A DNA stretch of 64,000 bases from Vicinamibacteria bacterium (GCA_031362685.1 JANLSZ010000354.1:1139-65138); one strand, 5' to 3'. Shown: positions 15,166 to 49,470, counted from the stretch's first letter. The notes: generated by a model from the sequence alone, not told the origin. A program made the numbers and translations.

Positions 15166-17091
15166 CTACCAGCGGGAAGGACCGGTCTGGCCCAGCGCGG
15201 CGAGGGCTGCGGTTGCCTCGCTATTGAGCGGGTCGAGCGCGAGGACCCGCCCGAAGGCGACGCGAGCCCGCGCGGGGATCCCCGCGTCCTTGAACATTCT
15301 GCCGAGAGCCAGCTGAACCGCCACGTTCCCAGGTTCGGTGCGCGCGAGGTCCTCCAGGTTCTGCTGGGCCGCCTGCGCCAGGCTGGGGATCTTCGCTTGA
15401 GTCTCGCCGACCAGGATCCTGATCGCCGTGGCCTCCGGTGTTCCTTCCGCGAGCCACTGCGCCCTGGCCAGACACTCGAGGGCCTCCCAGATTTTCGACT
15501 CGCCAATCAGGGTTCGCGCAATCGCCACCTCTTCCTGAACGGTGGCGGTGCGGGGAGCGGGCGGCACGGGAGCGGGCAGCACGGGAGCGGCCGGGCCGGA
15601 CGGTCGCTTCGCTGGACCAGGTGCTGGAACAAATGAAGTCGGACTGGCCACGAACACCGGCGAGCGCGGTCCGGACCCAACCCTGGGTGGCGAGGCGGGC
15701 GGAGGGGTCGGGCCCAAATTTCGGGACGGGGGGGTCGGGCCCGAATTTCGGGCCGTATGCGTCGGACCCGAGGCTTTGGGACCGCGGCGCTGCGTCTTGT
15801 CGGTCCCCACCAGCCGATCGGGCGCGCGGTTTCCCAGGAACTCGATGCCAACTCGGGTGATGTGATCGGTCCCGTGGCTGATGTTGCGAACGATGGCGCC
15901 GGTCTCGAAGTCTCCACCCACCTCGATGACCTTGACTTGATCGCCCGCCTCGAGATCCGACCAGCTGGTGAGAATCCGCATGCCGGTGCGAGAGAGATCG
16001 TGAGCCACCGTTCTCTCCTCCTTCTCGGCGGCTCCGTCGGCGCCGAGCTTGCGGAGGACCACATCGGTCGGGAGGTAGATTCGTTCTTCCTTGCGGGCAT
16101 CTTTGTGCGACCGTGCCGGCACCGGCGCCGGATTTTCCGCCAACGGCTTTCCCGGAGCGGCTTCGGGCGGAGGTGCGGTCGGCTCGTGAATCGCCGCCGA
16201 CCGCAGGGCCTGAGCGAATTCCTGGGCCGAGGCGAAACGATCGGCTGCGGCCTTGGCCAAAGCGCGACGCAGGGCGGGAACGAATCGACGTGGAACTCTC
16301 AACCCCTGCTCGTCGTCGAACGACGGCATGTCCTGGATCTGCTTGAAGAGCGTGGCCATGGGGGTGGCGCCCCGGATCGGGATGTCCCCGGTGAAGAGTT
16401 CGAAGGCCAGGATGCCAAGAGCGTAGACATCACTCCGAAAATCGAGGGCGTCGCCCCGGCATTGTTCGGGGCTCATGTACTCCGGGGTGCCAAAGGCCTC
16501 GCCGGCGGCGGTCTGGCCCTGGGACATTAGATCTTTGGCGATGCCGAAGTCGACCAGCCGCACCACTCCGCGCTCGTCCCGCGAAGCGTTGGCGGTCTTG
16601 AGGTCGCGGTGCAGGATCCCCACGTCGTGGATGGCCTGAAGACCGGAGGCGATCTGGAGGACGGCCGAGAGAGCCTCGGCCTCCGGAAGTCCCTTGGGCT
16701 GCTCCTTCAAGGTCTTCTGGAGATCCTGACCCTCGAGGATCTCCATGGAGATATAGCCGAGGGGCCCCTCCTCACCGTAGTCATGGATCCGGCAGACGTT
16801 GGGATGAGAGACCTTGCGCGCCAGTTTGATCTCGCCTCGGAAACGACGCACCGCGTCGGCGTGGGCAGACAGGTCGGTCCGGAGGACCTTGATCGCCACT
16901 TCTTCTTCCAGCAGGCGATCGAAGGCTCGATAGACGAGACCCATCCCCCCTTTGCCGAGAACCGCGCGCAGTTCGTAGCGGGAGGCAAGAACCGACCCCA
17001 GGGCCAGGGTGTTCAGCGAACGGCCGCAGGCCAGACAGGCATCAGCGCCGGCATCAATCGGCGCGGCACACGACGGGCACTCCATGGTCAT
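15166..17091 (-). CDS. Hanks-type Ser/Thr protein kinase with N-terminal zinc ribbon, PilZ domain and C-terminal TPR-like domain
   Basis: The ribbon is CPSCAAP...CLACG. Kinase motifs are GKGGMGLVY, AIK, HRDLK, DFG and TPEYMSPE. PilZ motifs are RKEER (RxxxR) and DLSRTG (DxSxxG). A TPR-like C-terminus follows. Confidence 0.85.
   Translation of the reverse strand: MTMECPSCAAPIDAGADACLACGRSLNTLALGSVLASRYELRAVLGKGGMGLVYRAFDRLLEEEVAIKVLRTDLSAHADAVRRFRGEIKLARKVSHPNVCRIHDYGEEGPLGYISMEILEGQDLQKTLKEQPKGLPEAEALSAVLQIASGLQAIHDVGILHRDLKTANASRDERGVVRLVDFGIAKDLMSQGQTAAGEAFGTPEYMSPEQCRGDALDFRSDVYALGILAFELFTGDIPIRGATPMATLFKQIQDMPSFDDEQGLRVPRRFVPALRRALAKAAADRFASAQEFAQALRSAAIHEPTAPPPEAAPGKPLAENPAPVPARSHKDARKEERIYLPTDVVLRKLGADGAAEKEERTVAHDLSRTGMRILTSWSDLEAGDQVKVIEVGGDFETGAIVRNISHGTDHITRVGIEFLGNRAPDRLVGTDKTQRRGPKASGPTHTARNSGPTPPSRNLGPTPPPASPPRVGSGPRSPVFVASPTSFVPAPGPAKRPSGPAAPVLPAPVPPAPRTATVQEEVAIARTLIGESKIWEALECLARAQWLAEGTPEATAIRILVGETQAKIPSLAQAAQQNLEDLARTEPGNVAVQLALGRMFKDAGIPARARVAFGRVLALDPLNSEATAALAALGQTGPSRW
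15707..15787 (-). repeat. Three tandem 27-bp coding repeats in the kinase PilZ-TPR linker
   Basis: gtcgggcccaaatttcgggacgggggg / gtcgggcccgaatttcgggccgtatgc / gtcggacccgaggctttgggaccgcgg. They encode repeated xxGPTxxxR nonapeptides on the minus strand. Confidence 0.6.
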
Positions 17092-17293
17092 TGGATCAGA
17101 TGCGGGGGGGCCTTGTTACATCCACGGAAAGGGCGGATGAAATGGAACAGCTAAAGGAAGATGGCGGAGTCTACCTCCGCCGCCGGGGAGGATTCACGCC
17201 CCCCTGAAGAGGAACACCGCCGTCACGTCGTCACGTCCCCGGACCCGCGCCCGTTGCTGAGCCTCTCCCGCAACAGAGTCGACAGAACCGCAG

Positions 17294-18397
17294 TTATCGG
17301 CGTTTAGCGGGATCGCTCAACGCCGCGAGGGCTGCGGTCGCCTCGCGATTCTTCGGATCGAGGGCAAGCACTTGCTGGAAGGCGAGTCGAGCTCGCGCGG
17401 CCAGGCCTTTCCCGAAGAACATTCTCCCGAGCGCCGAATGAGCGGCCACGTCCCCGGGCTCGCTCCGCGCGAGGTCTTCGAGATTTTGTTGAGCGGCCCG
17501 CATCAGGCTCGGGACCTTCGCTTGAGTCTCCCAGGTCAGAATCCTGACCGCCTTGGCCTCTGGTGTTCCTTCCGCGAGGGCCTGCGCCTTCGAAAGACAC
17601 TCGAGAGCCTCCCATATCTTCGACTCGCCGATCAGCCCTCGCGCCGTCGCGCGCACGGCCGCAATCTCCTCCAGGACATTCTCGGCCGAGCGCCCGGCGG
17701 CCACGGGGGCGCCGGACGGTTGCCCCCCCGCTTCCCTTGGTGGAACAGGGGAGGTCGGATTGGGCGCGACCGCGGGCCGCGGGATCCAACCCGTGGTTGC
17801 GGGCCGCGACTGGGAAGCGGATGTCCCCAACCGGGGGATCTGACTCGAAGCTCGAGGAGGAGGGAGCGAAGCGGAAGTTCCCCCGGGCGGAACCGCAGAG
17901 CGCTGAACGGTGCTGAAAACGGGTCGCCTTATGCTGGTGGTGGTCCCAACCAGCCGGTCCGGGGCTCGATTCTCGACGAATTCGATACCGGCCCGCGTAA
18001 TCTGATCCGTGCCGCGGCGGACGTGGCGAACGATGGCCCCGGTCGAGAAATTCCCTCCCACTTCCTGCACCGAGACCTGATCGCCCTCGGCCAGATCCGA
18101 CCAGCTGGTGAGAACTCGCATGCCGCTCCGAGAGAGATCGTGGGCGATGGTTCTCTCCTCTTTCTCCGGCACGCCGTCCGGACCAACTTTACGAAGGAGC
18201 AGGTCCGTGGGGAGCTCGAAGCGTTCGTCCCTGCGGGCGCCCTTGCCGAGGGCGGGCGCTCCAGAATCAGGGGTCGGCGACAACGGCGCGGGTGAAGCCA
18301 CGGCCGAGGCCAGGGGCGACAAGGAACGACCACAGATCGAACATGCATTTGCGCCAGCCTCAGTGGCGGCGGCACAGAACGGGCAGGGAAGGGTCAT
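17294..18397 (-). CDS. Zinc-ribbon / PilZ / TPR-like protein, kinase-less paralog of the adjacent kinase
   Basis: MTLPCPFCAAATEAGANACSICGRSL parallels the kinase N-terminus. PilZ motifs RRDER and DLSRSG are present, and the C-terminal ~115 aa are highly similar to the kinase C-terminus. The ORF is listed to 18424. ATG 18397 was chosen by alignment to the paralog. Confidence 0.75.
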   Translation of the reverse strand: MTLPCPFCAAATEAGANACSICGRSLSPLASAVASPAPLSPTPDSGAPALGKGARRDERFELPTDLLLRKVGPDGVPEKEERTIAHDLSRSGMRVLTSWSDLAEGDQVSVQEVGGNFSTGAIVRHVRRGTDQITRAGIEFVENRAPDRLVGTTTSIRRPVFSTVQRSAVPPGGTSASLPPPRASSQIPRLGTSASQSRPATTGWIPRPAVAPNPTSPVPPREAGGQPSGAPVAAGRSAENVLEEIAAVRATARGLIGESKIWEALECLSKAQALAEGTPEAKAVRILTWETQAKVPSLMRAAQQNLEDLARSEPGDVAAHSALGRMFFGKGLAARARLAFQQVLALDPKNREATAALAALSDPAKRR

Positions 18398-18459
18398 TGG
18401 CGCGGCTTCAGCGAAACTGTACAACCGCCCACTGGCAAGAGCCGAAAGGACCGACTCCC

Positions 18460-19647
18460 CTACTTCTCCAGATCGCTCCCTCGCACCAGCGCCTCCTTGC
18501 CGAATTTCTCCCGCACCTTGTCCCGGAGTTCGTCGATCCGGGCGCCCCGCTTCGGGGCCGCCTCCTCGAACAGCGACTTCTGTGCCGGCTCTTCAAACCC
18601 GGAAACTCCGATGCCGAGGAGACGCACCTTCAACGAACCGTGGACCTCGTCGAAAAGCGCCGCCGTAGCTTCGAAGAGTTCGGAAGCGATATTGGTGGGA
18701 GCCTTTCGCGTGCGCGCGTGGGTTCGGGTCTTGAAGGTCTCATCGCGATACTTGAGGGTGATGGTCCGCCCGGCGAGAGACTCGGCGCGAAGGCGACGGG
18801 AAAGTTCGTCGGCGAGGTGCAGCAGAGTCTTGCGTAGTGCGCGCGGGCTGCCTTCATCCACGTCGAATGTGTGCTCCACCGAAACGCTTCGGGCGGGCCC
18901 CGAGTCCGAGACCACCGGCCGATCGTCTTCACCCCGGGCCAGGCGCTGCAGATCGAGGCCATGCGTGCCGAGGAGCCTGGTCCCCTTCGCATCGGCCAGT
19001 TGACCGACGGTGTGAATACCGAGTCTGGCCAGGCGCTCTTCCATCTTCGGCCCGACGCCCCACAGGCGGCGCACCGGCAGCGGGGCCAGGAACGCTCGCT
19101 CCGTTCCCGGAAGCACCACCACCAGGCCATCGGGCTTCTCGAGATCGGAGGCGATCTTGGCGATGAGCTTGGCCGTCGCCACACCCACGGACGCCGTCAG
19201 TTTCGTCTGCTCGCGAATCTGAGCCTTGATTCTCCGGGCGATCGTCTGTCCATCTCCGAAGAGCCGGACGCTCGCGGTGACGTCGAGGAAGGCTTCATCC
19301 ACTGAGATCGGCTCCACCAGGTCCGTGAAGGCCTCGAAGACGGTGCGGATCTCCTTCGAGACCGCGCTGTATTTCGCCATGTCGGGCGAGATGAAGATGC
19401 CCTGCGGACAAAGGCGGTATGCGGTCGAGATCGGCATGGCGCTCACCACCCCGAACTTCCGGGCCGCGTAGCTCGCGGTCGACACCACTCCCCGCCCGGT
19501 TCCCCCCTTGGGGTCGGCGCCGATGATCACCGGCTTTCCGCGCAACTCCGGACGATCCCTTTCCTCCACGGCGGCGTAGAACGCATCCATATCGACGTGA
19601 AGAATCGTCCGTGGTGCGTTCGTTTTCAATCGGGAGTCGGGCGGCAT
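18460..19647 (-). CDS. dinB: DNA polymerase IV (Y-family)
   Basis: ILHVDMDAFYAAVEERDRPELRGKPVIIG... and SIDEAFLDVT are canonical DinB motifs, and the length fits. Confidence 0.9.
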   Translation of the reverse strand: MPPDSRLKTNAPRTILHVDMDAFYAAVEERDRPELRGKPVIIGADPKGGTGRGVVSTASYAARKFGVVSAMPISTAYRLCPQGIFISPDMAKYSAVSKEIRTVFEAFTDLVEPISVDEAFLDVTASVRLFGDGQTIARRIKAQIREQTKLTASVGVATAKLIAKIASDLEKPDGLVVVLPGTERAFLAPLPVRRLWGVGPKMEERLARLGIHTVGQLADAKGTRLLGTHGLDLQRLARGEDDRPVVSDSGPARSVSVEHTFDVDEGSPRALRKTLLHLADELSRRLRAESLAGRTITLKYRDETFKTRTHARTRKAPTNIASELFEATAALFDEVHGSLKVRLLGIGVSGFEEPAQKSLFEEAAPKRGARIDELRDKVREKFGKEALVRGSDLEK

Positions 19648-19715: not shown

Positions 19716-20177
19716 ATGAAGACAGACAAGACCAGGCTCGCCGCCGCGGCTCTCCTTGCTCTTTCGCTCGCCGTGCCGGGAAGCGCTCAAGCGAAAAAGG
19801 ACAAGCCCGGAGCGGCCATTCCCACCGCGGCTTCGGCGCCCATGCCGAAGACAGACCGAATGCCGATGGCGGAGTTCAAGAAACTCCTGGCGGAAGGCGG
19901 GGTGGTGGTCATCGACGTGCGGTCCAACGATGCCTACCTGGGTGGCCATATTCCCGGCGCGCTGTCGATGCCCGAGATCACGGACGCCACCGCCCTGAAG
20001 CTGAAGCAAATGGGCAAGCCCATCGCGACTTATTGCTCCTGACCGGCCGAAAACACTAGCGCCCGTGCGGCGCAGATCCTGCAGAAGATGGGCGTCGCCG
20101 CCCAGGCCGTCGTCGGTGGATATAACACCTGGGTCCGAGAGAAGAACCCGGTGAAGACCGGGGCCGACGCGAAGTAG
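19716..20177 (+). CDS. Periplasmic single-domain rhodanese with in-frame TGA (20040-20042) at the catalytic position; candidate selenoprotein or disrupted gene
   Basis: The signal peptide is MKTDKTRLAAAALLALSLAVPGSAQA. The rhodanese N-half ends ...IATYCS-TGA. The same frame continues PAENTSARAAQILQKMGVAAQAVVGGYNTWV... to TAG 20175-20177. An intrinsic terminator lies only after that TAG. Confidence 0.55.
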
Positions 20178-20208
20178 CCTGGCAAAGGGTTCCGGCCCTG
20201 GGCGAGAA

Positions 20209-20235
20209 CGCGTCCGAGATATCGGGCGCGTTTTT
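20209..20235 (+). terminator. Rho-independent terminator
   Basis: CGCGTCCGA-gata-TCGGGCGCG forms a 9-bp stem with one G:U pair, followed by TTTTT, 32 nt after TAG 20177. Confidence 0.7.
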
Positions 20236-20259: not shown

Positions 20260-20452
20260 AGCTATCCTCTGCGCTGTCGCTAAGGGTGCCTCCATAAAAG
20301 GAGGGTAAAAGGGAAGCAGGTCGAATACCTGCGCGGTCCCGCCACTGTAGCCGGCGAGTCGTTTCTCGATCCGTGCGAGCCACTCGAGTCCCAAAGACTC
20401 GGGGAAGGCTCAGAGAAACGGCGTTGACCCGGGAGCCAGGAAACCTGCCTCG
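20260..20452 (+). promoter_or_regulatory. Cobalamin (B12) riboswitch
   Basis: Contains AAGGGAAGCAGGTCGAATACCTGCGCGGTCCCGCCACTGTAGCCGG with the B12 box GCCACTG. Downstream are GCCACTCGAGTCCCAAAGACTCGGGGAAGGC and CCGGGAGCCAGGAAACCTGCC. It lies upstream of a TonB receptor and a B12-type ABC importer. Boundaries are approximate. Confidence 0.8.
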
Positions 20453-20606
20453 AGCGAAGTCGGCAATATCAACAACGAGGCTTCTCGCGGAAGAAGGCCA
20501 CGGTCGCTCAGCAGGTCGTCCCGGAGTCAATCGGGTCCGGAACCTCCATGAGCCCGTTCTCCTTCCTCCGTCCGGGGCTTCATCCTCGAGGAAGGATTCC
20601 AACGTC

Positions 20607-22793
20607 ATGACGCTCCACCGGTCCAGCCGGACTCTCATTCGTCTCACGTCGCTCGCCGCTGCTTTTGGCGCATCCGCTCTTTCCGCCGCTGAAATCAGCG
20701 GCTCGGTGAGGACGCAAAACGGACTGGCCGTCTCGCAGGCGGTCGTCCGTCTCACCTCTTCCACCACTTCCGGAGAAGTGGTCACCGGATCGCAGGGTGA
20801 GTTCAAGGTCGATCTGCCCGACGGGTCCTACATCGCCACGGTGCGCGGATTCGACGTCGATGCTTCGCCCATTCTTGTCACGGGGCAAGATGTGGCGCTC
20901 GCGATCTCGCTCCGGCCCGCGAAGATCCGCGAAGAGGTGGTGGTGACAGCCACCAGGTCACGCACCGCTGTCTCTTCGATCGGCGTTTCGGCCAGCGTTC
21001 TCGACGCCACGGATCTGAAGGAACGCCAGACCCTGGGTCTCACCGACATGCTCGCCGAACTGCCGGGAATGGCGGTGGCCACCACCGGCGGGGTGGGCGC
21101 GCAGTCGTCCTTGTTCGTGCGAGGCGGCGAGTCGCGCTTTGCCCGCGTCCTCATCGACGGCGTGCCCGTGAACGAACCCGGCGGCTTCTTTAACTTCGGC
21201 ACGCTGCTCACGCCTGACGTCGAGCGCGTAGAGGTGGTCCGGGGCTCTTTCGGGACGCTGTACGGCTCGGACGCCCTCGCCGGCGTGATAGCACTCGACA
21301 CCACAGCGGAGGGAGCGGGGCGAAGACTGCGAGGCGAAGCAAGTGCAGGCGATCTCGGGTCTCAATCGTTCCTGGCCCGCGGGAGCGAGAAGCACGGTCT
21401 TCTTTCGGGCTCCATCGCGCTCGGTCGATCCCAGACCGACAATGAAGGTCCGAATGCGGACTTCACCTCGAACCTGTTCGCCGCTTCAGTGGAACGTCGA
21501 CTGGACACCGGCGGCTCAATCGTCGGATCGTTCCGACTCAACACCTCCGAAGGTGGCACGCCGGGACCCACGGTGTTTGGCCGGCCTGACCTGGATGCTC
21601 GTTACCAGCGTGATCTCATGATCGCGAGTCTCGCCGCGAACTTCCGGTCCGGTGCAATGTCCCACGCGTCCCGCATTGGTTTCAAGAGCGACGATCAACT
21701 TTCGAAGAATCCGTTGAACTCGGGTTCGTACCGGCCGACCTACGGTTCGCGCCGCGCCGCCTTCGACTCCTCGGACTTCCCTGACCCTCTCGGATACGCG
21801 AACAACACCAACCGACTCTTCGGAACCTACGAAGTGCGCGGCCAGATCCGGTCGCACTCCGTCACCGCCGGGGGCGATATCGAACGTGAGACTGGTGAAC
21901 TGGGAAGTGTCGGAACGTCCCCGCTTTCTCCGACCCGAACCAGCTACGGCGCTTTCGTCCAGGACCAGATCGCCCTCTCGTCGCGCGCCTTTGGAACCCT
22001 CAGTCTTCGGGCCGAGCACAACGGCTCCACGGGGACGACCCTGGTGCCCCACGTCTCGACCGCCTGGATTGCCGCGCGCGACGCGAATTTCGAACTCACC
22101 GTTCGCGCGAGCGGCGGCGCGGGAATCAAGGCTCCGAGCTTCTTCGAAAGCTACGGCACGTCGTCCTTCGCCCTCGGCAATCCCGATCTCAAGCCGGAGC
22201 GAGCGCGCACCTACGATGGCGGTATCGATCTTCGAGTGGGCGACAACGTGAAGCTGCAGGCCACGTACTTCCACCACCAGTACCTCGACCAGATCGCTTA
22301 CAAAGTCGTCTCGTTCTCGCCCTTTCGAGGCACCTACGAGAACCTGGGCGAAACCAAGGCCAGCGGCTTCGAGTTCTCGGGCGAGTGGCGCCCGTCCACT
22401 CACCTGCGCTTCGTGTCCAACTTCACGCGGCAGAACAGCGAGATCCTGAGCAGCACCAGCATCGACCCCCTCCTGGCCGTGGGCCGCGAGCTGCGCCGCC
22501 GGCCCCGAAACCAGGGATCGATCAGGGGAGAGGTGACGATCGCCCGGGGCACCCTGGCCGCGACTCTGCTCAGCGTGGGCCAGCGCGCGGATTCGGATTT
22601 CCTGGGCATCGGGCTTGAGGAGAATCCTGGATTCACTCGGGTGGACGTCCGTGCGGCCTACCGTCTCAACTCGCACCTGAGAATCCTCGGAGCGGTTGAG
22701 AACTTGAATGACGCGAACTATCAGGAGGTTCTGGGCTACGCGGCGCTGCCTCGACGGTTTCGCATCAGTCTCTCCATGGACAGCGCGAAGTAG
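20607..22793 (+). CDS. btuB: TonB-dependent vitamin B12/siderophore-type receptor
   Basis: Has a signal peptide. The plug motifs are VVVTATRS...DATDL and SLFVRGGESRFARVLIDGVPVNEP. The barrel ends ...RFRISLSMDSAK. It sits behind a B12 riboswitch. The start was moved from the listed 20373 to ATG 20607. Confidence 0.75.
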   Translation: MTLHRSSRTLIRLTSLAAAFGASALSAAEISGSVRTQNGLAVSQAVVRLTSSTTSGEVVTGSQGEFKVDLPDGSYIATVRGFDVDASPILVTGQDVALAISLRPAKIREEVVVTATRSRTAVSSIGVSASVLDATDLKERQTLGLTDMLAELPGMAVATTGGVGAQSSLFVRGGESRFARVLIDGVPVNEPGGFFNFGTLLTPDVERVEVVRGSFGTLYGSDALAGVIALDTTAEGAGRRLRGEASAGDLGSQSFLARGSEKHGLLSGSIALGRSQTDNEGPNADFTSNLFAASVERRLDTGGSIVGSFRLNTSEGGTPGPTVFGRPDLDARYQRDLMIASLAANFRSGAMSHASRIGFKSDDQLSKNPLNSGSYRPTYGSRRAAFDSSDFPDPLGYANNTNRLFGTYEVRGQIRSHSVTAGGDIERETGELGSVGTSPLSPTRTSYGAFVQDQIALSSRAFGTLSLRAEHNGSTGTTLVPHVSTAWIAARDANFELTVRASGGAGIKAPSFFESYGTSSFALGNPDLKPERARTYDGGIDLRVGDNVKLQATYFHHQYLDQIAYKVVSFSPFRGTYENLGETKASGFEFSGEWRPSTHLRFVSNFTRQNSEILSSTSIDPLLAVGRELRRRPRNQGSIRGEVTIARGTLAATLLSVGQRADSDFLGIGLEENPGFTRVDVRAAYRLNSHLRILGAVENLNDANYQEVLGYAALPRRFRISLSMDSAK

Positions 22794-22797
22794 CCGG

Positions 22798-23667
22798 GTG
22801 CCGAAGAACGGTGACACCCTGCCTGTAGCGCTCACTCTGATCGTCGCCCTCCTGGGAACCTCGACACCAGAGGCGTGGGCTCAAACCTCGACCCCACCGC
22901 AGCGGGTCGCGTCGTTGAATCTGGCCTCTGATGAGATCCTCGCGGACATCCTTCCGGTCGCGCGCCTGGTGGCGGTCACCGCCCTGGTTGACGAGCCAGG
23001 CACTTCGAACGCAGTGGGCCGGATTCCGAAGACCATCGCCCGGTTTCCAAAGGTCGACGTCGAGCGACTGATCGCCTTGCGGCCGGACCTCGTCGTGGTC
23101 TCCGAGTACACCGATGCCGATGTCCTGCATGCGATAAGGCAGTCCGGCCTCAAGGTCCACCGGATGACCGGCCTCGATTCCCTTCAGGGCTTTCGGCGGG
23201 CCCTCCTCGATCTCGGCGAGGCGGTGGGCGAAAGGAGCGCGGCCTCGGATCTCGCGGCCGACTTCGACTCCCGCCTCCGCCAGATCGAACGTCGGCTGCA
23301 GGGGGCCCCCCGGCCCACGCTCCTCTACTGGGCGAGCGGCTTCACCGCCGGCTCCATGACCGCGTTCGACGCGCTTATCGCCTGCGGTGGAGGCAGGAAC
23401 GCCGCGGCGCTCGCGGGTCTTTCCGGAATCACGCCCCTCGGAGCCGAGCGGGCCTACGGTCTCGATCCGGACTGGTTGTTCATCGGCAGTCACACCACCA
23501 CGTCGAAAGAGATCCACGAACACCCGCTGCTCTCAAGGATGCGGGCGGTGAAGGCCGGACATGTGGTGGAGATGCCCACCGAACTTCTGGTGGCCCTCAA
23601 CCACCACGCGGTGAAGTCGTGCGAGTTCATGGCGCACGCCCTCCACCAGGAGAGGTTCCCCAAATGA
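22798..23667 (+). CDS. Periplasmic cobalamin/Fe-siderophore binding protein (BtuF/FecB-like)
   Basis: RVASLNLASDEILADI...RPDLVVVSEYTD is typical of class III substrate-binding proteins. The GTG 22798 start follows the upstream stop, and a signal peptide is present. Confidence 0.7.
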   Translation: MPKNGDTLPVALTLIVALLGTSTPEAWAQTSTPPQRVASLNLASDEILADILPVARLVAVTALVDEPGTSNAVGRIPKTIARFPKVDVERLIALRPDLVVVSEYTDADVLHAIRQSGLKVHRMTGLDSLQGFRRALLDLGEAVGERSAASDLAADFDSRLRQIERRLQGAPRPTLLYWASGFTAGSMTAFDALIACGGGRNAAALAGLSGITPLGAERAYGLDPDWLFIGSHTTTSKEIHEHPLLSRMRAVKAGHVVEMPTELLVALNHHAVKSCEFMAHALHQERFPK

Positions 23668-24674
23668 GCGTAGGGCGGGTAACGGGTTTGCTCGCTTGCG
23701 GCCTCATTCTCTCGATCATCGCCGCCATGTGTCTCGGAGCGGTGCGATATACGCCAGTCGAACTCGCCTCCGAGGCCTTGCGCACCCTCGGATTCCAGGC
23801 CGCGTCATCTCTGGACGAGGCCCATACCGTCATTCTTGGGGAGATCCGTTTCCCGCGCGTCCTGCTGGCCGCGCTTATCGGAGGAGCGCTCGCTCTCACC
23901 GGAGCTCTCCTGCAGACGGTGTTCCAGAATCCGATGGCGGACGCTTCGCTTCTCGGGGTTGGATCGGGGGCCGCTTTGGGCGCGGTGGTCGCGGTGAAGC
24001 TCGGGTGGTCGTTCGATGTCTTCCTGGCTCTTCCCGCCGCCGCCTTCGTGGGCGCCCTCGGGGCCGCGCTCATCGTCTACCTGGTCGCGGAGAGCACCAG
24101 GTCGTCGTCCCTGACTTCCCTGATCCTCACCGGACTCGCGGTGAGCGCTTTTCTTTCCGGGGTCACGTCGATCGTGCTGATCGCCTCGGAAGAGTTCCGG
24201 GTTCGCACGGTCTTCTTCTGGCTGGCCGGCGGGCTCGAGGGGCGCGGCTTCGTCCATCTGACCATCGCCGCGGTGCTGATTGTCCCGGCCTGCCTGGCCG
24301 CCGCCCTGCTTCATCGGCCGCTCGACCTGCTTCTGCTCGGCGACATGGAGGCACGGGCACTGGGACTGAACGTTCCGCGGATGCGCCTGCTGCTTCTGGC
24401 TCTCGCCGCGCTCCTCTCGGGGGCCACCACCTCGATCGCGGGTTCGGTGCCGTTTGTCGGACTCATGGCGCCGCATGCGATGAGAGGCCTCGTGGGTCCG
24501 CGTTCGTCGCGACTCCTGCCCGCGGCCTTTCTCGCGGGCGCGATCCTGGTCGTCCTCTCCGACCTGGCGGCGCGCGCGATCTCCGACCGCTACGACCTGC
24601 CGCTCGGCGCCATCACCTCCCTTTCCGGCGCGCCGTATCTGATCCACATTCTGCGGCGGACGGAGCGCGCATGA
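23664..24674 (+). CDS. FecCD-family ABC permease (BtuC-like)
   Basis: FPRVLLAALIGGALALTGALLQTVFQNPMADASLLGV and ...GAPYLIHILRR are FecCD signatures. The ATG overlaps the upstream stop. Confidence 0.85.
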   Translation: MSVGRVTGLLACGLILSIIAAMCLGAVRYTPVELASEALRTLGFQAASSLDEAHTVILGEIRFPRVLLAALIGGALALTGALLQTVFQNPMADASLLGVGSGAALGAVVAVKLGWSFDVFLALPAAAFVGALGAALIVYLVAESTRSSSLTSLILTGLAVSAFLSGVTSIVLIASEEFRVRTVFFWLAGGLEGRGFVHLTIAAVLIVPACLAAALLHRPLDLLLLGDMEARALGLNVPRMRLLLLALAALLSGATTSIAGSVPFVGLMAPHAMRGLVGPRSSRLLPAAFLAGAILVVLSDLAARAISDRYDLPLGAITSLSGAPYLIHILRRTERA

Positions 24675-25468
24675 ACGACCTCCGCCTCCTGGAAGTTGTG
24701 GACATCACCGTCCGCAGGGGCGAGCGGGACGTGGTCCACCATGTTTCGCTGGGGTTCAACGCATCGGAGCGCGTGGCTTTGGTCGGGCCCAACGCGGCCG
24801 GCAAGTCGACGCTCCTCTCCGCGATCGCCGGCCTTCTCCCCAAGGCCGCGGGCGACATCCGCCTCGGCGGCCGATCGCTGTCGACTTTCTCGAGCCGCGA
24901 AATCGCGCGCACCGTGGCCCTGGTGGTGGCCATTCAGGAAGGAGCGCCGAGACTCTCGGTGCGTGAAAGCGCGGAACTAGGGCGCTATCCCCACACCGGT
25001 CCCTTTCAGGACCTCTCCCGAGGAGATCACCATGCGGTTTCCCAGGCCATCGCGGAAACCGGTCTCGACGACCTCGTCGATCGGAGCCTGAGTTCGCTTT
25101 CCGCCGGAGAGCGACAACGCGCCCTGATCGCTCGCGCCCTGGCTCAGGAACCAAAGCTGTTGCTCCTGGATGAACCCTCCGCCCATCTCGACATCGGCCA
25201 CGGCCTCGACCTCTTCGCGCTGCTTACGACCATCGCCGCCCGCGGGGTGGCGATCGTGGCGGTGATCCATGATCTGGTCGCGGCCGCCCACTGGGCCACC
25301 CGGATGATCGTGATGCACGAAGGACGGATCGTCGATGATGGCCCGCCGAACACGGTCATGAAAGGCGAGCCATTAGGACGAGCCTTCGGGGTATCGATCT
25401 CCGAAGCCCATTCGATCCAGGGCGCCGGCTCACCCACCTGGCGTTTCGAACGAATGCCCGGCGGGTAG
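24671..25468 (+). CDS. ABC transporter ATP-binding protein (BtuD/FecE-like)
   Basis: Has Walker A GPNAAGKST, signature LSAGERQR and Walker B LLLLDEP. An ATGA overlap links it to the permease stop. It is the C-terminal part of listed ORF 23696..25468. Confidence 0.85.
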   Translation: MNDLRLLEVVDITVRRGERDVVHHVSLGFNASERVALVGPNAAGKSTLLSAIAGLLPKAAGDIRLGGRSLSTFSSREIARTVALVVAIQEGAPRLSVRESAELGRYPHTGPFQDLSRGDHHAVSQAIAETGLDDLVDRSLSSLSAGERQRALIARALAQEPKLLLLDEPSAHLDIGHGLDLFALLTTIAARGVAIVAVIHDLVAAAHWATRMIVMHEGRIVDDGPPNTVMKGEPLGRAFGVSISEAHSIQGAGSPTWRFERMPGG

Positions 25469-49381: not shown

Positions 49382-49470
49382 GGAGGGCTAGACCTAACTG
49401 GTAAGGCAGGAGCCTTGAAAGCTCCCGGGCTTCACGGCCCTTCGGGGTTCGAGTCCCCGGCCCTCCGCCA
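49382..49470 (+). tRNA. tRNA-Ser (anticodon UGA), type II with long variable arm, CCA encoded
   Basis: The acceptor is GGAGGGC/GCCCTCC. The anticodon stem GGAGC/GCTCC carries the loop CTTGAAA. The variable arm is GGGC...GCCC and the T-arm is CGGGG-TTCGAGT-CCCCG, ending G-CCA. The D-arm is atypical (see findings). Confidence 0.8.

Follow-up and report, generated by a model that had tools for sequence, protein, structure and literature searches.

Rhodanese selenoproteins have been catalogued since 2005 (PMC1088965, PMC2398784), and the alternation of UGA with Cys codons at one column is the signature that defines selenoproteins (PMC1088965, methods). Several forms are listed. Forms 1, 2 and 4 carry UxxS or UxxG and TsoB carries UxxxxU (PMC13188914); a C-x-U protein, form 3 (NCBIfam NF041203, "rhodanese_LYCAU"), is also listed in reviews, which credit it to Zhang & Gladyshev 2005, Bioinformatics 21:2580 (PMC9312934, PMC13188914). 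All of these share the rhodanese fold with selenocysteine (Sec) in the active-site loop. Judging from the motifs alone, Sec would replace the canonical Cys in the UxxS/UxxG forms, whereas the protein described here keeps that Cys and adds a predicted Sec at +2. Acidobacteria are documented Sec users, at the level of the phylum (PMC1794560, Table 2; PMC12013277, Table 2). A limited full-text literature search found no paper on Sec in Vicinamibacteria or in the clade described below, and the literature search returned no biochemical data on any C-x-U rhodanese.

Among classical rhodaneses, GlpE and PspE of E. coli (PDB 1gmx, 2jtq) have the same fold and size as the present protein and likewise hold the catalytic Cys at the end of the central strand. 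PspE is also periplasmic. Their loop is six residues long and cationic (CYHGNS, CNAGRQ), whereas the loop here is two residues longer and acidic, with the putative Sec at +2.

Here we describe a rhodanese gene with an in-frame UGA in a 64,000-nt stretch of DNA (hereafter the window) from a Vicinamibacteria bacterium (GCA_031362685.1, JANLSZ010000354.1:1139-65138). Comparison with its homologs indicates that the UGA at 20040-20042 is very probably (roughly 0.88) a genuine Sec codon, read as selenocysteine in a 153-residue exported protein. C-x-U rhodanese selenoproteins are a kind already described, and existing knowledge is not overturned; what is new is an Acidobacteriota/Vicinamibacteria sequence clade missed by current annotation models. 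A preceding sequence-only reading of this locus had named rhodanese selenoproteins as a reported family, which the reviews document (PMC9312934, PMC13188914).

Results

The open reading frame runs from ATG 19716 to ...KPIATYCS and then meets TGA at 20040-20042. Past the TGA, the same frame continues for 44 codons (PAENTSARAAQILQKMGVAAQAVVGGYNTWVREKNPVKTGADAK) up to TAG 20175-20177. The interrupted ORF and its extension were proposed in the sequence-only reading, and every feature was recovered where it had been placed. The features of the gene are as follows.

19716..20177, + strand: complete CDS of a predicted 153-residue rhodanese-domain selenoprotein precursor, with UGA as Sec109 and stop TAG 20175-20177
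19716..19793, + strand: predicted signal peptide (MKTDKTRLAAAALLALSLAVPGSAQA, predicted cleavage after A-Q-A), by heuristic sequence pattern
20034..20036, + strand: Cys107 codon TGC, canonical catalytic position of rhodaneses, where the central beta-strand ends, from alignments and a structural model
20040..20042, + strand: in-frame UGA, putative Sec109, position +2 of the expanded active-site loop, from comparison of the TGA/Cys column
20049..20051, + strand: Glu112 codon, invariant acidic residue of the active-site loop, from the alignment of Sec and Cys forms
20058..20073, + strand: candidate bacterial SECIS core, invariant 16-mer AGCGCCCGUGCGGCGC, conserved in Sec forms
20208..20235, + strand: intrinsic terminator with a 10-bp stem, GAUA loop and U5, from folding against shuffles

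The joined 153-aa protein matches Pfam Rhodanese (PF00581) over positions 3-101 of 102, with 57.3 bits against a cutoff of 22.2, whereas the ORF cut at the TGA covers positions 3-69 only. The half of the rhodanese domain that the cut ORF lacks is thus encoded by the 44 codons beyond the TGA, as had been suggested.

A reassigned code, in which UGA is a sense codon throughout the genome, is extremely unlikely: TGA is the stop of 8 of the 18 confident long ORFs in the window, several family members end their own ORF with TGA (for example, the locus L015), and a scan of the 64-kb window found the TGA at 20040-20042 to be the sole one splitting a credible coding frame. Three other TGA-split candidates in the window were rejected as Ser/Pro/Arg-rich antisense frames.

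A homolog search of 5.8 billion proteins returned 89 relatives. As many as 84 are 95-132 aa long, cover up to about 71% of the query and all end in ...ATYC followed by S, A or T; these roughly 84 truncated cluster representatives show 55-82% identity. In the few relatives of full length, Cys stands at the position of the TGA, as in P0085 and P0086 with ITYCSCPAENTSARA. At the DNA level, we then compared 74 related loci drawn from GTDB genomes and from metagenomes. The TGA is present in 22 loci (hereafter Sec forms), which comprise 18 unique sequences, and all 18 have it at the Sec109 column. Past the TGA, these loci hold 44 conserved in-frame codons followed by a genuine stop (40-44 codons in three divergent forms). 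A further 22 unique sister sequences (Cys forms) have TGC or TGT in exactly the TGA column, without exception. Thus both expectations for homologs, Cys in the TGA column and continuation through the C-terminal 44 residues, are borne out by 22 Cys forms and 22 Sec loci.

Among the Sec forms are 10 genome records of GTDB species representatives, and 9 of these carry the label Vicinamibacteria or (uncultured) Acidobacteriota. They also include three divergent lineages, namely L015 (Acidobacteria gp6), L048 and L056, at about 40% protein identity. Across 15 Vicinamibacteria Sec forms, dN/dS is 0.21-0.24 in the extension compared with 0.17 for the 30 codons before the TGA, and variable sites in the extension fall 18/15/31 by codon position. 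Both the dN/dS and the codon-position pattern argue that the extension is translated in the TGA frame.

These comparisons bear directly on the idea that the TGA is a nonsense mutation, the mark of a pseudogene, or a sequencing or assembly error for TGC or TGT in one record. A single base change from either codon would suffice, and both the gene caller and public annotation take the TGA as a stop (P0026 is recorded as a 109-aa rhodanese-like protein). However, about 84 independent cluster representatives share the TGA, as do 22 loci that stem from different genomes and samples, and purifying selection acts on the 44 codons downstream. Additionally, an independent Logan assembly is identical to the window over 1,334 nt including the TGA, although it may derive from the same sample. 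We regard a mutation or error as having next to no probability.

Two observations concern individual loci. L013 (CAZTXO010000136.1, a 2.6-kb contig) is binned as "uncultured Saprospiraceae" and carries a Sec-form rhodanese 75% identical to the window protein, a value that lies within the spread for loci labelled Vicinamibacteria; this short contig has probably been assigned to the wrong bin. L051 and L052 carry nearly identical Cys-form genes, yet L051 runs about 100 residues beyond the stop of L052 through a GAKGARGAKGA repeat, pointing to a lost stop codon, a frameshift or misassembly.

The hairpin GCGCC-CGUGC-GGCGC at 20059-20073 lies 16 nt past the UGA, where the sequence-only reading had located it. 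It consists of a 5-bp stem (20059-20063 paired with 20069-20073) and a 5-nt apical loop, CGUGC, and its exact 15-mer occurs once in the window. The 16-mer that contains it, AGCGCCCGTGCGGCGC, is the same in each of the 18 unique Sec forms, even where protein identity falls to about 40%. A single codon is used for each residue of Ser-Ala-Arg-Ala-Ala (codons +6 to +10) in 18 of 18 Sec forms; at nearby 4-fold sites (Ala -5, Thr -4, Thr +5, Leu +13, Val +18), 2-4 codons are used. In the Cys forms, the equivalent of the hairpin peptide is written with varied codons. Moreover, dS is 0.18 in the hairpin codons versus 0.73 in the remaining extension. The RNAalifold consensus of 14 sequences is exactly the 5-bp stem with its CGUGC loop, and the pattern TGA-N16-hairpin is found in 22 of 22 Sec-form loci and in none of 55 other loci. 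In divergent Sec forms the stem is lengthened to 6-8 bp (L015: CGAGCGCC...GGCGCUCG).

Folding of the single sequence gave no signal: shuffled versions of the 48 nt that follow the UGA are just as stable (z = 0.17), and the isolated hairpin is not significant (z = -1.4). In a genome of 65% GC, we set such thermodynamics aside as evidence either way. Since folding of the lone sequence is not significant, the statistical weight for this region comes wholly from the comparison of homologs. The hairpin core shows no covariation, as it never varies; only the outer pair 18:36 shows UG/CG/GC, and the observed values were reached by 60 of 500 shuffles. An Rfam scan of the region with E up to 10 gave chance matches only and no SECIS family. 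The hairpin had been called compatible with a SECIS; its invariance and its restriction to Sec forms strengthen that view, whereas folding significance, covariation and Rfam matching lend it nothing. The minimal fdhF element of E. coli lies 11 nt from its UGA; here, the short 5-bp hairpin lies 16 nt away. Taken together, the hairpin is a strong SECIS candidate, to which SelB would presumably bind.

The sites of the 16-mer are 20058-20073 in the window, 1834-1849 in L015, 865-880 in L048 and 317-332 in L056, with no compensatory stem changes across lineages that are about 40% identical in protein. Sequence-specific recognition by SelB, a double constraint on protein and RNA, or recent horizontal spread of the Sec form are possible reasons for this invariance. 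Two metagenome Cys forms, L069 and L071, have a 5-6-bp GC hairpin of different sequence at the SECIS position (codons +6 to +11), which could be a fossil SECIS or just GC-rich Ala/Arg codons. The reverse complement of the hairpin (20059-20073, - strand) was flagged as terminator-like by a pattern scan. We consider this an artefact, produced by the palindrome of the GC stem together with a T-rich stretch, as the minus strand has no gene ending at this site.

We also considered that the UGA is recoded without Sec, either through hairpin-stimulated near-cognate read-through (Trp, Cys or Arg) or as a regulated stop that yields mostly a product of about 82 residues after signal cleavage and the full domain only occasionally. 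UGA is the leakiest stop codon, no Sec machinery was found in the window or the locus flanks, and the hairpin is small and recognised by no Rfam model. Nevertheless, the column holds either UGA or a Cys codon throughout the family and nothing else, and the closest curated family is an established selenoprotein family that shares the C-x-U motif. Truncation at the UGA would also cost the product the helix of the active-site loop and half of its fold. On this evidence recoding without Sec is improbable, and decoding of the UGA as Sec is the reading that we prefer.

The search for machinery by tblastn with E. coli SelA, SelB and SelD (window and all loci) and by ARAGORN (window and 20 loci) found no selA, selB, selD or tRNA-Sec in the 64-kb window or the locus flanks, a part of the genome so small that the result is uninformative. 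The sole tRNA of the window is an ordinary tRNA-Ser with anticodon TGA (49382-49470, + strand), not a tRNA-Sec.

The sequence-only reading had aligned the TGA to the catalytic Cys. We found otherwise with four alignment methods and a structural model. MAFFT places the canonical catalytic Cys on the upstream Cys107 and not on Sec109. Searches with phmmer and profile hmmsearch against PDB rhodaneses also make Cys107 canonical (3tp9, vYC--rtggrS; 6mxv, fYCg--ggfrS), and hhalign against GlpE (98% probability) sets GlpE Cys65 on Cys107; the GlpE sequence used is one that we take to be correct, as its Cys65 numbering and family match support. The strand K-P-I-A-T-Y-C corresponds to the usual "kpivvyC", and all aligners open a 2-residue gap in GlpE, 3tp9 and 6mxv after the catalytic Cys. 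The AlphaFold model examined is that of P0085, a Cys form whose loop is identical to that of the window protein. In this model the domain has pLDDT >90, the central strand ends at Tyr117, and Cys118, the equivalent of Cys107, is the first loop residue, with a second Cys at +2 and the helix starting from Asn124.

Because aligners and model put the catalytic Cys on Cys107, the motif is best read as C-x-U within an enlarged loop, C-S-U-P-A-E-N-T-S. The predicted Sec109 lies at +2 in a loop that exceeds the usual length by two residues, and the canonical Cys is retained. Cys107, Sec/Cys109 and Glu112 are invariant across Sec and Cys forms, the Glu112 column being E in 18/18 Sec forms and 22/22 Cys forms. 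The classical loop C-x-x-G-x-[RK]-[ST] is absent: C-S-U-P-A-E-N-T-S has the invariant Glu and neither Gly nor Arg. It had been argued beforehand that a catalytic Cys at the upstream Tyr-Cys would make the TGA a simple nonsense mutation and the gene a pseudogene. The register did prove to be the upstream one, but a nonsense mutation does not follow, because the +2 column is invariantly Cys or Sec across the subfamily.

Among NCBIfam models the window protein matches NF041203 ("rhodanese-related (seleno)protein") best, with positions 16-124 of 126 covered. Its score of 60.4 bits is below the curated cutoff of 115; nine other members of the broader group score 58-93 bits, none reaching 115, with the Vicinamibacteria Sec clade farthest away. 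Both groups have a single rhodanese domain, a Sec two residues after a conserved Cys, coexisting Sec and Cys forms and the motif Y-C-x-U, with several members of the window clade reading Y-C-A-U. They differ in that the window clade has T-Y-C-S-U-[PQ]-x-E in place of the L-Y-C-A-U of NF041203, and in that the window protein has a predicted signal peptide and an Acidobacteriota/Vicinamibacteria lineage. A protein search seeded with the Cys form nearest NF041203 recovered Acidobacteriota Cys forms only and no LYCAU core members. By sequence, then, the window protein represents a divergent sister clade of NF041203 that shares its motif and falls outside the curated threshold. Against the GlpE and PspE family models the window protein scores 30.3 and 20.9 bits, respectively, with a cutoff of 102 for each.

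The best fold match in the PDB, also among the best by sequence, is BH2092 of Bacillus halodurans (PDB 3nhv, 3o3w; E = 7.7e-11 for 3nhv), a rhodanese of unknown function from structural genomics. Among the solved rhodaneses found, BH2092 alone can be aligned along the whole loop with no gap (TYCWGPACNGAT versus TYCSUPAENTSA). However, BH2092 is not a selenoprotein; it has Gly at the Sec position (+2) and its second Cys at +5, where the invariant Glu stands here. A limited literature search found no papers mentioning BH2092.

The terminator at 20208-20235 folds with -25.5 kcal/mol (z = -5.67), and 0 of 200 shuffles are as stable. Its placement after the TAG rather than after the TGA had been noted and is confirmed. 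A pattern scanner missed it, in our reading because one more A-U pair extends the stem, so that only four Ts follow it. At the N-terminus, a basic n-region is followed by a hydrophobic core with a mean KD of 2.58 and an A-x-A motif. By the same kind of heuristic, 79 of 84 family members have a basic n-region and hydrophobic core and 17 have a lipobox-like ALGC, in agreement with the exported protein predicted earlier.

Discussion

We identified a rhodanese gene whose recoding signature is conserved and whose residue register is established. The conserved TGA, Cys homologs in the same column, a conserved translated extension and a hairpin restricted to Sec forms together uphold the initial proposal of a selenoprotein gene. 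Beyond these observations, we infer SelB dependence, selenium content, catalytic chemistry and the physiological substrate.

We propose the following model. The 5-bp hairpin 16 nt downstream would act as a bacterial SECIS that recruits SelB and Sec-tRNA(Sec) to a ribosome paused at the UGA; the ribosome would then translate the rest of the domain as far as TAG 20175, with transcription ending at the terminator at 20208-20235. The mature periplasmic protein would present Cys107 and Sec109, two residues apart, in the expanded acidic loop C-S-U-P-A-E-N-T-S. This Cys-Sec pair may cycle through a selenenylsulfide, or carry a persulfide or perselenide, so that the protein would work in redox reactions or chalcogen transfer and not as a classical thiosulfate:cyanide sulfurtransferase, whose chemistry seems less fitting because the loop is acidic and enlarged. 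The specific C-x-U selenenylsulfide chemistry is put forward tentatively, at somewhat under even odds. Still more speculatively, and with less expectation that it holds, the expanded-loop C-x-U/C-x-C rhodaneses of Acidobacteriota might form a catalytically distinct class of exported proteins, in which the Cys and the +2 chalcogen make a strained selenenylsulfide or disulfide beside the invariant Glu and act as a periplasmic oxidoreductase or selenium/sulfur carrier, with a SECIS that, unlike that of E. coli, is read by SelB sequence-specifically.

About 84 cluster representatives from one database search are recorded as "rhodanese-like" fragments of about 105-116 aa, because gene callers stop at the UGA. 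The NCBI selenoprotein model NF041203 misses the clade, and adding clade seeds or lowering the cutoff would mend these entries; the corrected annotation would bring Vicinamibacteria a selenoprotein family. Moreover, the Sec and Cys forms offer a clean natural set of pairs in which the putative selenium residue is the second loop residue and not the canonical catalytic Cys. They would make a tractable system for the role of the C-x-U pair in a rhodanese fold and for the needs of a minimal 5-bp SECIS.

Upstream of the rhodanese gene, within 15166-19647, the minus strand encodes a Ser/Thr kinase, a PilZ protein and dinB. The Vicinamibacteria MAG locus L003 shares this kinase-PilZ-dinB (Y-family polymerase) block in synteny with the window and also repeats the window gene order of rhodanese plus a B12-uptake-like unit. 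The dinB gene is divergent to the rhodanese gene in each of three contexts examined, namely the window, L001/L002 and L003. In L001, the gene downstream of the rhodanese is a porin. We rejected a functional link to the neighbouring genes, because the rhodanese gene is closed by a terminator of its own and is followed by a different gene in L001; only the divergent dinB synteny is conserved. Downstream in the window lie the following features.

20267-20466, + strand: cobalamin riboswitch, 106.6 bits
20373-22793, + strand: TonB-dependent receptor ORF
22708-23667, + strand: Peripla_BP_2/BtuF-like binding protein
23619-24674, + strand: FecCD permease
Ending at 25468, + strand: ABC ATPase

The riboswitch heads this separate B12-uptake-like operon (20267-25468, + strand). 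The listed GTG start of the TonB-dependent receptor overlaps the riboswitch, and the true start is probably near 20607 (MTLHRSS..., signal-peptide-like).
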